Below are positions 13,227-62,160 of a stretch of DNA of 64,000 bases, in pieces. The position numbers and the translations under genes are program-made. The DNA is taken from contig OZ024750.1 of NCBI GenBank assembly GCA_964016885.1, forward strand, positions 46,934,001 through 46,998,000. Direction: 5' to 3'. The notes under the pieces are model-generated. The model made no database searches, was not told where the DNA came from, and worked only from the letters and a program-made list of their open reading frames with translations. How positions within the stretch are numbered: the stretch's first letter is position 1; each line of letters opens with the position of its first letter. The stretch comes from Eledone cirrhosa. Lineage: Eukaryota.

Positions 13227-13495
13227 AAGTATTGAAATTTCCGTTGAAAACAGAAAAGGTCATAGAAGTGAAGAGTGCTCTATGTAAGTACCAGAGCAAA
13301 ATTTAATGTATAAAAATCAATACAATATAATTACCTCATTACCAGAGGTTTCCCGAATGAGGCGAATACGAAAGAAACGTCTTCATTTGTTCGTCAGACG
13401 AGGCAATAGCTTATTGAGACGTTTCTTTCGTATTCGCCTCATTCGGGAAACCTCTGGTAAAGAGGTAATTATATTGTATTGATTTTTATACATTA
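13227..13495. mobile_element. Fold-back insertion in (TA)n; arms 13304-13382 and 13417-13495, with a ~77-nt extension on the left
   Basis: Near-perfect 79-bp inverted repeat. The extension resembles the family A terminus. Confidence 0.85.
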
Positions 13496-13951
13496 TATAT
13501 ATATATATATATAAATACATATATATATATATATATACATATTTATATATATATATATATATAAATACATATATATATATATATATAAATACATATATAT
13601 ATATAAATACATATATATATATACATATATATATATGTATATATATATATATATATATACATATATATATTCATATATATATAAATACATATATATATAT
13701 ACATATATATATATAAATACATATATATATATATATATATAAATACATATATATATATACATATATATATATTTATATATACATATATATATTCATATAT
13801 ATATAAATATATATATATACATATATATATACATATATATATTCATATATATATAAATATATATATATATATATACATATATATATTCATATATATATAA
13901 ATACATATATATATATATACATATATATACATATATATATATATATATATA

Positions 13952-14540
13952 TTTATTGAAATAACAGATTAAAGTTTAAGATTAAAGTTTAAGCAAAGAA
14001 TCGCTGCTTTCACCCTTAACGGGATCTTCTGAATCTAACAAAGTCAATCTGTAAACGCTGAAGTGGATATTTCAAAAAACATTGCAACCGGAGGAAGACA
14101 GAAAGACGATACTTTGGTTCGTGGAAACGTTCGCTATGCAAATAAGTAATGGTATAAACAAATCATATACTTAGCTCCCACATCAAGGCGTAAAATATCC
14201 ACGTATAGATCGTACTATCCGTTAGGCTATAACGTGGGGCTGTAATACAGGAAAGCTTTGTGCAATTTATGTTTGCATAGCGAACGTTTCCACGAACCAA
14301 AGTATCGTCTTCCTGTCTTCCTCCGGTTGCAACTTTTTTTGAAATATCCACTTCTGCGTTTACAGATTGACTTTGTTAGTTTCAGAAGATCCCGTTAAGG
14401 GTGAAAGCAGCGATTCTTTGCTTAAACTTTAATATGTTATTTTAATAAATATTTGCTCTACGGTTCTTATATATTTCATATATATTTATCATTATCGAGC
14501 CCTCTTTGGATTTTAGTCTTGAAACTTATTATTATTGCTA
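13952..14540. mobile_element. Family A PLE fold-back insertion (spliced form)
   Basis: Arms ~13952-14141 and ~14271-14451. The centre 14146-14255 is the reverse complement of 11570-11680. Confidence 0.9.
14378..14428 (+). ncRNA. Type I hammerhead-like motif with CAGAAGA core (family A)
   Basis: AGTTT-CAGAAGA-TCCC gttaa GGGT-GAAA-GCA..TGC-TT-AAACT. Also at 13986-14036(-), ~49162-49212(-), ~61300-61350(-) and ~12540-12590(+, damaged). Confidence 0.65.
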
Positions 14541-14560
14541 TATATATATATATATATATA

Positions 14561-15331
14561 TGTAAGTATGCATGTATACGTACATACATATATGTATACA
14601 GACGTACAGTAGCATGCAAATATATATATATATATATACGTATATATATACATATGCATACAGGTACACATACATATATGCACGTATCAGTTTAGCGGCG
14701 CTTATTATAACGTCGCTTTGTTCGTTTGTAAACAAACTGAACAGCCTGAATTTATGCCATACGGTGTTAAGGCAACCACGTCACCTTTTTGTTCAACACT
14801 GACACAGGAACGATGTACTAGTTTCAAGCTTGTTAGCTATCATCAGCACCGTTTACCCATCTGCCAGATAGTTGAACGTTCGAAAGTATATACTTTCCTT
14901 ATGAAAATTAACGGCTGAGAAGCCTAATTTGCATAGTGAGTGAGTTAAATCGGTCAGGCATACCGAAAACGATAAATTGAAACAAAATGAAAACGAAATT
15001 TCATTTCTCACTCTTAGTATGGCACTTACTTAAATGTAAGTATGCATGTATACGTACATACATATATGTATACAGACGTACAGTAGCATGCATATATATA
15101 TATATATATATATATACGTATATATATATAAGCGCCGCTAAACTGATACGTGCATATATGTATGTGTACCTGTATGCATATGTATATATATACGCATATA
15201 TATATATATGTGCATGCTACTGTACGTCTGTATACATATATGTATGTACGTATACATGCATACTTACATTTAAGTAAGTGCCATACTAAGAGTGAGAAAT
15301 GAAATTTCGTTTTCATTTTGTTTCAATTTAT
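14561..15331. repeat. Complex direct-plus-inverted repeat between (TA)n arrays
   Basis: 14561-14645 recurs directly at 15035-15125. 14561-14705 recurs inverted at 15128-15270. 14972-15095 pairs with 15209-15331. Confidence 0.85.
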
Positions 15332-16989
15332 ATATATATATATATATATATATATATATATATAATCTAAAGGTAATATTATTCTCTTATTTGGTTGGTT
15401 AATTAATAATCATGTTACACTTCTTCAGAACATTAAGTATATATCGAGGACACCCTAATTTTATAAGGAATCGCTATTCATATCTATTTTATTCACGCAT
15501 ATATTTCGATGTATAAGTATTTCTCTGGCGCCATATTTTTATTTTGTGCAGGCTATACTTTGAGTATATTTATATCTGCATTGTAATTGTTTTTTCATGT
15601 GAATCATCATGTGTATGTGCACATGTGCATAAACTACCCACGCAGGAATGCGAGAATATATGGAGTTCAGTTTGTAGAAGTCGTCAGAAAACTATATTAT
15701 AGAGAGTATGAAATATATTAAAAGTTATGGAAATTGATGTTAAATATAAACTATCAGAATTTTGTAGAAAGGAAATTCGCTGAATTAAATATGCCCATGC
15801 TATCATATGAGGTTAATTGCGTTCTTACGAAGAACGCCTACACACTATATTTAATTTACTTAGAAGCAATTTCCCTCTGCTCTCTTATGGATAAATGGAA
15901 AACAATGAAGAAACAGATGTGTGAACAAAATAAACCACAAACTTGAAATATACTTAACGAAGAAATAGAGATAAAATGAAAATCAGACATTTAAGCTTTA
16001 GATGGAATTTGATTACATACTAATCTCGCAAGATTCCATACTGATTTAGCGAAAGATACTAAAAAAAAAATAGGTTTCTCGACTTCATATCTTTACATCA
16101 TGTACATTGGTGGAGAGGATTCTGTGAACATTTGCAATACTAGAGTAAAGAATTTAATTTTTTATAAGATGCTACTTGGTAGTTTTCCTTGCTATATCCC
16201 TCGTCTATGATAGCAGACACTAAGAGTTTATACCATCAATTTGTATTAAGCAGATATTTAGTCTGCAGAATCGCCCGGCGATGTAACTCGTGAATTGTAC
16301 GCACTGCACCAATTTCCCATAAATCCAGCTGTGCATCTCGTTACATGAAGTCATGTTTATTTCATCTTATTAAATATATAATGTAACATTTTTTATAGCT
16401 TTAGGATACATTGATCGTTATAAAATATGCTTATTTGTCTAAAAGCTTTGTATCATAATTCTATTTAAGAACCTTTGTTGGATGTTTTATTTCAAACACT
16501 AGCTTAAAAAGTTGTAATATTGCTAATTGATTTCAAGTTCTTCGTTATTTTCAAAATGATTTACAAATCATAAATAGTGTGTTCCATTAAAAATATAGTA
16601 ACAAGAAAGTCAAAAATTAAATTTGAAAAATCTTCGAAAATGGTAATCCATCAAACACAACTAGAGGAAATGTCAGGAAAATAAAATAACCTTCCTTGCC
16701 TTGATAGAGGAATGTGGCTCTGTTAAGAGATACTTTCCGATTATCTCAGAAATATAAGACATATCTTTAAGGATGACGGAGTTTACGTTGAAAAGTCAAT
16801 AATTTGATCAGCTTGTAAATTAATGTGTAAGTGATTGAATATTTCACACCACAGGTAATTAAATTAATTCGCAGGTAGAATCAGTGTGACATAATTTGTG
16901 ATGAGAGAGGAAATGTTAATTACAGCTACCATCTCTCCATGGGTTTGCACACAGTTTACCACGAAATTAGTTTCAAATACAAGGCCTAG

Positions 16990-59956: not shown

Positions 59957-60082
59957 ATAACGAAGGAAATGTGGTAAGGAACCAGGTGGACCATAACGCA
60001 CCAAAGTACTCAATACTTAGGGTAGTAGAGTGGGTAATAGGAACAAGTAAGACCCCGACGGCTGAGCTCAAGCCGTTTCGAC
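59957..60082 (-). mobile_element. Family D PLE 3' end
   Basis: Near-identical to 38630-38756 (reverse complement). Confidence 0.88.
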
Positions 60083-60718
60083 ATATATATATGCGTGTGT
60101 GTGTGTGTGTGTGTGTGTGTGTGTGTGTGTGTGTGTGTAAAAGGTAAACAGTATTAACAACACAATCGGTACTCTATATGGAAGGAACATATTAGGAAGA
60201 GGGTCTTAACTTTTCGGACGCTATTCCTCCATCAACAGAAAGAACGATAGATAAGAATCGATTGAAGGGACGTAGGGGTGGAATGGGAAAAATGTCACTA
60301 GATAAAAATAACAGGTCCATTGATGTTGACATCTCTCCGAAATATATATATATCAACTAGAAATTGATTGACAGACATATATTTAAAATAAACGCATGAA
60401 ACGATCACAGGGTATATTTTGTAAAGTGTGTAATCACACATAGTATGATTATATATATGTATATATATATGTATATATATATATATATATATATATATAT
60501 ATATATATATATATATATATATATATATATATATATATATATGTTTCTATATATATATATATATGTATATATATATATATATGTATATATATATGTATAT
60601 ATATATGTATATATGTATATATATATATATGTATATATATCTATATGTATATATATATATATATATATATATATATATATATATATATATATATATATAT
60701 ATATATATATATATTTAT

Positions 60719-61156
60719 AAAAGTACTATTTAAATTGTTGGGATACAACAAGAACATATTTTATACCTGATATAAAGCACTCAACAAATATTTGGAGTAA
60801 ACATACGATATTAACAAATGGAAACTATATCTATTAAACCATATTTATTTCATTATATATATTTCAAGCATACCAAGTCAAATTATGGCGTTCTTTCATC
60901 AGACAAAATATAATATAGATCAGTTTTTTAAATAAATATTGACATACCCTTAAAGAATGCAACCATTACTGTTGGAAGATCCCGGATAGTGGGATCTTCC
61001 AACAGTAATGGGTATGTCAATATTTATTTATAAAACTGCTCTATATTATATTTTATCTGATGAAAGCACACCATAATTTAACTTGATGTCCTTGAAATAT
61101 ATATAATGAAATAAATATGGTTTTATAAATATAGTTTCCATTCGTTAATAGCGTAT
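60719..61156. mobile_element. Fold-back PLE end; arms 60803-60982 and 60990-61156, ~85-nt left extension
   Basis: Inverted repeat with a hammerhead in each arm. A diverged relative of the terminus is at ~44700-44825. Confidence 0.88.
61049..61113 (+). ncRNA. Type I hammerhead (mirror copy at 60846-60910, minus)
   Basis: TATTTTAT-CTGATGA-[stem II]-GAAA-TATATA-TA-ATGAAATA. Confidence 0.78.
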
Positions 61157-61277
61157 ATATATATATATATATATATATATATATATATATATATATATAT
61201 ACATATATATATACATATATATATACATATATATATACATATATATACATGTTATATATATATATATATATATATAT

Positions 61278-62160
61278 ATTTATTAAAATAACAGATTAAA
61301 GTTTAAGCAAAGAATCGCTGCTTTCACCCTTAACGGGATCTTCTGAAACCAACAAAGTCAATCTGTAAACGCAGAACTGGATATTTCAAAAAACGTTGCA
61401 ACCGGAGGAAGACACGAAGACGATACTTTGGTTCGTGGAAACGTTCGCTGGCAAAGAACGGGAAAAAACGAATAATACGTCATTAATAGGAGCGGTGAAA
61501 AACAATTACGCGCAAAGACAGAACCACGTTTATGGTATAAAAGAGGTCGTAGACTAATGTTCTCTTAGGTGGTGCATAGAGACGTTCTCTGGCAATGAAC
61601 GAAAAAACGAAGATAATAAGTCATATGTGGAGCGTGGAGAACAATAGCACGCAAAGACAAAACCACGTAAATGGTATAGCAGAAGTTGTAGACTAAAATT
61701 CTAACTAGGAGACCAAATGAATCTCCGCTACAGGGTTAAGAACAAAGTAAATAAATACAATACAGAAGTAATAGAAACAAATAAATATATACACGCAAAC
61801 AGATACGTACATACACAAGCATCAGCAAAACCTTACCATAGGTATACAAAACCACGCACATATAAATATGTGTGTGTGTGTATGCTTGTGTACAAATAAA
61901 TAAATAATTATATAAACGTATATAAGTAAATAAATACGTATATAACAAGCGCACACACATACCTACAAATAAATACACGAATGTTCGGAGACGTAAGTCA
62001 ACTAAAACAAGAAGTACACATATACACACACCCACGATACGTACGAACCTGCATACTCACGCAGACGCAAACTCCCGTATACACATAGCCAAACCCTAAA
62101 TGCCAGAGCCCTCTTTGGATTTTAGTCTTCAATTTTATTATTATTATTATTATTATTACT
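61278..62160. mobile_element. Family A inversion: minus arm 61278-~62097 (unspliced 3' UTR) plus the terminal ~55 nt on plus
   Basis: Reverse complement of ~11800-12613, followed by gagccctctttggattttagtcttc..(tta)n ac(TA)n. Confidence 0.9.

Follow-up and report, generated by a model that had tools for sequence, protein, structure and literature searches.

Two-ended insertions between (TA)n runs

The window analysed here is a stretch of 64 kb (GenBank assembly GCA_964016885.1, contig OZ024750.1, positions 46,934,001 to 46,998,000) inside the 3.0-Gb, AT-rich genome of the animal Eledone cirrhosa, and (TA)n runs and inverted repeats are abundant across it. Our subject is a class of insertions of Penelope-like elements (PLEs), the closest retrotransposon relatives of telomerase, in which two arms of one family lie head-to-head in a (TA)n target. 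Their ends fall at two internal sites of the element that are followed by TAT or ATAT, and a pair almost always uses one of each; the two arms belong to the same subfamily and are 5'-truncated independently of each other. As judged from sequence, such pairs likely arise by twin priming of two complementary DNAs (cDNAs) on one RNA. Throughout, T denotes the distal and I the upstream end site of each family; the polarity, with 3' ends outward, was set by the open reading frame (ORF) strands in the fold-back at 26870-31269.

A preliminary description of the window had claimed at least ten fold-back insertions between (TA)n runs, and all 12 places on its list hold head-to-head arms flanked by (TA)n runs with their 3' ends outward. 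Family A is represented by a fold-back at 13953..14538, with the I arm on the left (including an internal piece at 14134-14277), the T arm on the right and an offset of 86-90 nt, and by insertions at 49142..49347 (a 175-nt I arm on the minus strand plus a 37-nt, tail-only T arm) and 61280..62159 (an 830-nt minus-strand I arm plus a 42-nt, tail-only T arm). Family D is found as a variant fold-back at 37595..37806 (T left, I right; offset 61 nt, with a deletion in the tail), as a fold-back at 38565..38754 (I left, T right; offset 80 nt), whose junction lies at stem II of a hammerhead, and at 58466..58949, where the T arm comes after a 17-nt I arm and a stretch from inside the D ORF (unit 299-618). 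Three of the 12 are therefore not true palindromes: the arms do not overlap at 49142 and 61280 and are kept apart by an ORF piece at 58466. The family C fold-back at 26870..31269 spans 4.4 kb, with the T arm on the left, the I arm on the right and an offset of ~90 nt; its ORF fragments lie at 28063-29745 (minus) in the T arm and 29724-30449 (plus) in the I arm, and the arms are 96.6-99.7% identical. The same order, T left and I right, is seen in family B (13228..13493; offset 78 nt; a family with a hammerhead motif), family E (48729..49090; 64-68 nt; U3-A8 hammerhead motif), family H (57985..58405; 46-50 nt) and the family I (F1) fold-back at 60715..61153 (~91 nt; canonical hammerhead motif), and the reverse order in family F (49383..49794; 34-39 nt). 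Beyond the earlier list, we identified a Neptune-like fold-back at 36304..37559 (offset ~55 nt; ORF fragment 36319-37035), a two-ended segment of family I (F1) at 44699..46198 (~89 nt), a fold-back of family G (F40) at 57547..57889 (~30 nt) and a further offset pair at 35890-36279.

Insertions of different families cluster tail-to-tail with only (TA)n between them at 13228-14538, 48501-49794, 57547-58949 and 60715-62159, and the flank of each clustered insertion seems to become the target of the next. The internal piece at 14134-14277 belongs to a family A variant that fuses unit position ~2255 to ~2991 and recurs at three further loci (L029, L030 and L053); the middle of the 3' untranslated region is missing from it, and it resembles a deletion derivative that is propagating. 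A solo, 5'-truncated family A copy on the plus strand (10540..12702), which ends at T and holds a broken Hydra-type ORF, served as the first reference. The plus strand also carries a coding region for a Hydra-type reverse transcriptase (RT) with GIY-YIG (23962..26178), with DKT and CxCx5C motifs and 40% identity to the family D protein.

The units of families A (3259 nt, ~3.26 kb) and D (3531 nt, ~3.53 kb) encode proteins of 709 and 717 aa, respectively, which carry YRDD and YIG-T, and hence RT together with GIY-YIG at the C-terminus in one ORF, as well as RLRWR and HSDKTGN motifs. The A, C and D proteins have a CxCx5C linker and CxxC and CxH near the C-terminus, with no CCHH; by these motifs they are assigned to the Hydra clade, and the (TA)n insertion typical of that clade is present. 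The ORF at 36319, with a CxxC linker and a CCHH-type GIY-YIG (two Cys inside GIY-YIG), is by the same kind of evidence of the Neptune/Nematis-like type, so that the checked ORFs are, on their motifs, mostly Hydra clade, with one Neptune-like pair in the window. Pfam gave a weak GIY-YIG match (E=0.0098) on one PLE fragment and zero matches on the other four, the PLE RT going unrecognised; atlas neighbours score 0.99. A truncated 3' piece running through T stands ahead of the full-length copies of A and D, an arrangement that is the partial-tandem form of the pseudo-long terminal repeat (pLTR).

Using our own descriptor, we found a hammerhead motif upstream of I, in a consistent place and in at least two copies, in 12 of 21 families, with one match in shuffled controls; the U3-A8 variant is among the predicted motifs. 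The predicted hammerhead of family D is clear in long copies, and the family A core is degenerate. Families E, B and G, putative PLEs, carry hammerhead motifs with no ORF linked within the 1.264-Mb sample described below; families F and H likewise have no linked ORF there, and their putative PLE label comes from architecture only. The predicted cut lies ~95-300 nt before T, varying by family, and a fixed distance from hammerhead to primer was rejected for this reason. Reading 5' ends as marks of hammerhead cleavage was also rejected for family A, in which 15 upstream boundaries are scattered. Since the arms read through the predicted cut, the RNA was presumably uncleaved there. An Rfam scan of the window gave no hammerhead among the best 150 of 185 matches; the matches are sub-threshold miRNA hairpins only, caused by palindromes and TA runs.

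Internal end sites and their one-each use

The ends of family A were surveyed at 60 loci, 30 chosen by tail and 30 by body sequence only. Of 93 near-terminus arm ends, 91 lie at one of three positions, namely T (54), I (32) and a minor site (5), counts that take in read-through tandem junctions and a few loci counted twice. The two sharp end peaks per family that had been expected are thus seen, as are the recurrent stops reported before, which read TTTTAATAA|ATAT in family A and TTCC|TAT in family D and recur among copies. The minor site of family A lies 37 nt downstream of I (L016, L022, L040, L048 and L057) and takes the place of I opposite T in three pairs. Across families the I-to-T offset is ~30-140 nt and is family-specific. 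The preliminary description had one arm reaching the true terminus and the other stopping ~34-88 nt upstream; the two offset ends stand, but the range is wider and T is internal.

The internal position of T follows from copies that continue past it. Family A reads T|TATTTGG onward through the 5' region, with the ORF start 43 nt on, and family D reads T|TATCTAG onward in head-to-tail 3.5-kb multimers. A pattern of T plus TAT plus a non-A letter gave 530 matches in family D, and eight of the 15 that were fetched run into the element, the remainder running into imperfect TA. In tandem A and D copies the sequence runs on past T to the ORF. T is hence distinct from the RNA tail and both sites are internal, which removes the earlier proposal of one primer at the tail. 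The template just past I starts with TAT or ATAT in most families, and that just past T does so in families A, D and F10. Both primers would accordingly lie inside a more-than-unit RNA, at motifs able to pair with a TA 3' end.

One-each use was counted in a positional sample of nine stretches, the window among them, with a total of 1.264 Mb. It contains 1183 TA-bounded segments, 119 of which have both ends from one family; four were removed (two simple repeats and two inner pieces of one unassigned repeat), leaving 115 from 20 families. In 113 of these 115, one T end is combined with one upstream end; the exceptions are one T+T segment and one with neither end at T. The density is ~1 such insertion per 11 kb (114 in 1.264 Mb). 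Families F3, F11 and F18 are tied to a CCHH-type Neptune-like ORF, and the pairing rule therefore extends beyond Hydra. For family D, short fold-backs were counted over the whole genome by sequence patterns in equal 30-nt length windows, with reversed-pattern controls giving 0 matches: 10,394 were T+I, in comparison to 51 T+T and 113 I+I. As independent choice of ends gives at most 50% mixed pairs, this excess argues for coupled use. Two of six inspected I+I loci are altered T+I copies, and most of the inspected T+T loci appear genuine. Furthermore, it had been predicted beforehand for a full-length copy that it should end opposite to its 5' inverted partner (I vs T), which was found in six of seven, the seventh copy being interrupted, and all four family D multimers with both ends are T+I. 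Strict one-each pairing of the two end sites is thus confirmed as a genome-wide property. A T+T fold-back of family A with arms from two subfamilies is present twice, ~230 kb apart (L054/L055 and L260; G000:C1:426.64-426.87 Mb), likely as a segmental duplication.

In each of five family D arrays, 2-4 complete 3.5-kb units are accompanied by a partial one. Multimers with intact 717-aa ORFs and ABAB unit variants occur at L288-L290 (G000:C1:437194001-437220000) and L291-L293. Rolling-circle copying of a dimer RNA, suggested by the ABAB variants of these two arrays, is not supported; in array b (L291-L293) the 5' partial unit breaks the ABAB period, which matches later unequal exchange, and array a is uninformative. 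At the 5' end of the T arm of array b (G000:C1:91470001-91496000), a 55-nt piece of the D ORF is repeated ~65 times head-to-tail at the fold-back junction. Of 64 counted units, 58 are identical, and the multimer is young; the repetition could reflect RT reiteration, which would resemble telomerase, or later minisatellite expansion.

Other features were noted in passing. Window positions 14562-15329 are occupied by an abundant repeat that contains TA runs and an inner 360-nt palindrome and contributes ~30 ends in the sample for each of its families F4, F6 and F15. A long non-LTR element (31362-34312), with an endonuclease-RT ORF (Pfam RVT_1, E=1.5e-30) and C-terminal zinc-finger-like repeats, begins beside the (TA)n that follows the family C fold-back. 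Elsewhere, G000:C7:30000001-30100000 (L141-L150) has 20% GC over 100 kb and zero TA-bounded segments, and an AT-rich satellite with a period of ~277 nt fills the first 20 kb scanned.

Origin of the head-to-head pairs

The two arms of a pair carry the same variants. At six diagnostic sites, the arms of 26 family D pairs agree in 140 of 154 calls, so that 14 disagreements are observed against 78 expected under independence; allele frequencies are equal in I and T arms, without arm-specific alleles. For the 29 family A pairs, the discordant calls number 11 vs 33 expected, and the T+T pair at L260 alone shows 19. The raw divergence between family A arms is often not below that between copies, which fits a young, star-like family, and the signal of a common template therefore lies in the shared variants.

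The geometry of the arms was compared in 114 pairs from the positional sample, mapped to family references. Among the 65 that could be resolved, the I arm is longer in 31, the arms do not overlap in five, the T arm is longer in 17 and the two are equal in 12. An I arm that reaches or passes the T arm is hence more frequent than the reverse (36 vs 17, p = 0.013). A T-primed cDNA that folds back is unable to yield I-longer or non-overlapping arms, and this geometry therefore disfavours a simple snap-back. One array combines a 281-nt T arm with an I arm of 16 kb in which the units are 0-1 letters apart. Close to the hammerhead, I arms come to an end in zones that differ by family; the I-primed RT may lead on a shared RNA. 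Most junctions show overlaps of 0-5 nt or short fillers at the level of BLAST alignments; in a single case (L296-L297, G000:C1:377710001-377726000), a 27-nt filler equals the first 27 nt of the tail past I, in I-arm orientation.

We propose the following route, for which the evidence makes a likely case. An RT-endonuclease complex would cut both (TA)n strands, and the two TA-ending 3' hydroxyls would pair with UA in an uncleaved, more-than-unit (tandem or circular) RNA, one at I and one at T, 30-140 nt downstream. Both RTs would travel 5'-ward, often stalling at one family-specific structure near the hammerhead; short-homology end joining would then link the two cDNA ends head-to-head, and each joined cDNA would template the second strand of the other. 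The preliminary description had envisaged that both break ends prime in one defined pathway. The strict one-each use and the independent truncation partly support this, apart from the RNA-tail primer, and two-ended priming of a single break would be its central step.

Several points weigh against twin priming on one RNA. These elements are known here from sequence, and copying the same stretch twice would require strand displacement. In Poseidon from the green anole (PAc), priming is described as independent of RNA-DNA homology, with start sites alike on both strands (Frangieh, 2024; PMC11167929), whereas TA homology is present at both sites here. No empty allele or target duplication was found, duplications being invisible in (TA)n, and a search for paralogous empty (TA)n sites gave 4 of 98 matches, none informative. 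Gene conversion between arms might imitate a common template, and one RNA is indistinguishable from two sibling RNAs of a single locus. The figure of 36 out of 65 describes a subset, as 49 of the 114 pairs are complex, extend beyond the reference or are unresolved. As the main caveat, deletion at the palindrome centre after insertion might imitate both I-longer and non-overlapping arms. Finally, T+T and I+I pairs do occur, e.g. L260 (T+T) and L251 (I+I).

The evidence nevertheless favours twin priming on one RNA over self-priming, in which a T-primed cDNA or an antisense RNA folds back, is copied to the TA-like I site and anneals to the other target end, with later deletions at the palindrome centre to explain the uneven arms. 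With an antisense template, this has been published as a hypothesis on how head-to-head PLE repeats arise (Arkhipova, 2013; PMC3846280). It accounts for one-each pairing and same-subfamily arms, and it suits the many pairs whose ends lie within ~20 nt and the family D junctions at a natural hairpin. We consider it unlikely, as the I arm is longer or non-overlapping in 36 of 65 resolved pairs, very young multimers combine I arms of 10-16 kb with T arms of 123-281 nt, the unpaired centre can belong to either arm and I also terminates solo and full-length copies. Twin priming on two RNAs of one source locus, with an asymmetric dimer serving one site per subunit, would spare the copying of one RNA twice; PAc protein is predicted to be a dimer (Frangieh, 2024), some partial-tandem pieces unlike their neighbours (array c) imply that RNA switches happen, and 14 of 154 family D calls are discordant. 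However, the many active subfamilies predict frequent mismatch between arms, yet most arms agree, and the near-equal, arbitrary 5' ends of family A (2321/2337, 2806/2820 and 2714/2727) fit a single RNA better, so that we place this possibility slightly below self-priming.

Inherited palindromes, i.e. T+I fold-back masters that are transcribed and retroposed as a unit, a variable part of the middle being lost, would also entail one-each pairing, and family D fold-backs have a near-constant length of ~190 nt. This explanation is largely refuted and very improbable: junctions vary from copy to copy, there are no arm-specific alleles, the arms match within each subfamily and arm lengths span 17 nt to 16 kb in either direction. 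An assembly or chimera artefact can hardly be credited, even though no contig or read among those listed spans a whole window palindrome and (TA)n is difficult to assemble. The arms differ by 1-18%, which, as had been argued before, counts against it, and the offsets are specific to each family. Raw reads also speak against it, for other copies than the window palindromes: Illumina reads from another sample and study hold many distinct joints of a family A I arm to a tail, 684 raw reads run from the I site of family F into (TA)n, and contigs of a second species carry both end types.

It is conceivable, though we put this forward tentatively, that twin priming on one RNA is the normal rather than an accidental route of endonuclease-containing (EN+) PLEs, with a dimer, a programmed site per end, one possibly circular RNA and the I-primed RT leading. 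If true, inverted pLTRs, one-sided tails and multimers would be outputs of one reaction, which would have left hairpins in this genome in numbers of the order of 10^5. If transcribed, the insertions would supply double-stranded RNA in large amounts, and repeat annotation could misfile them as miniature inverted-repeat transposable elements (MITEs).

Comparison with known systems

The novelty of the arrangement was overstated in the preliminary description: the fold-back layout is already known (Craig, 2021, Fig. 2; PMC8557442; Arkhipova, 2013), and two internal start sites have been shown in vitro (Frangieh, 2024). Within the literature searched, we found no report of PLE twin priming or of counts of end pairing; the 2005/2006 Evgen'ev/Arkhipova reviews and the supplements lay outside this search, and the accessible portion of PMC13282606 holds nothing on these structures. 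The origin of the inverted pLTRs and one-sided tails is an acknowledged question (Craig, 2021), and the second-strand steps are described as unvalidated (Frangieh, 2024).

Hydra-clade PLEs are described with an inverted 5'-truncated copy, a tail of 30-40 bp at one of the ends and (TA)n as target (Craig, 2021). The elements studied here resemble them in the RWR, DKT, CxCx5C, CxxC and CxH motifs, the lack of CCHH, the hammerheads and the (TA)n target, as well as in the inverted 5'-truncated partner and one-ended tail drawn in Fig. 2 of that work. In contrast, the units of 3.26 and 3.53 kb do not agree with a length of generally less than 3 kb (a soft descriptor in the source), the tails are 30-140 nt instead of 30-40, and the copy number is very high; one-each pairing is unquantified in the available part of that account.

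The PAc protein in vitro nicks and extends both strands of an AT-rich target, and two internal RT starts, downstream of the hammerhead, bracket the tail on an uncleaved RNA (Frangieh, 2024). The same arrangement of two tail-bracketing internal sites downstream of a hammerhead, on uncleaved RNA, is seen here. PAc belongs to another clade, however, and its sites lie in the ORF, in an AC-rich loop without target homology, whereas here TAT follows the sites, which come before the ORF start. As far as its accessible text goes, the PAc work does not explain how the two sites are coupled or why there are inverted partners.

In Penelope from Adineta vaga, head-to-head repeats were attributed to self-priming on antisense RNA (Arkhipova, 2013). 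Head-to-head inverted pLTRs, a 31-bp tail on one of them and palindromes at the junction are likenesses to the insertions described here, but the uneven and non-overlapping arms favour two primers. PLE hammerheads have been reported with a U3-A8 core variant, in opposite-strand pairs 100-700 bp apart and in more-than-unit tandems, from which a circular template was proposed (Cervera & De la Pena, 2014; PMC4209133). The U3-A8 core, opposite-strand hammerhead pairs and more-than-unit tandem copies are all found here; with regard to the circular template, no accumulation of 5' ends is seen at the predicted cut site in full-length copies of family A.

The present work adds that two internal sites are paired one-each in a near-absolute manner, and it adds an arm geometry that favours twin priming and weighs against the published self-priming model. 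The genome supplies tens of thousands of events, ~98% of which use each of the two start sites once, and very young copies with unbroken ORFs make the question open to in vitro testing. In L1 twin priming, both target strands prime on one RNA, and the inverted 5' part is joined by microhomology. There, the poly(A) tail is used together with a variable internal site, and the arms scarcely overlap. Here, in contrast, neither site varies and both are internal, and in most cases the two arms are copies of one and the same stretch. The pairing thus works like twin priming, but not in its L1 form.

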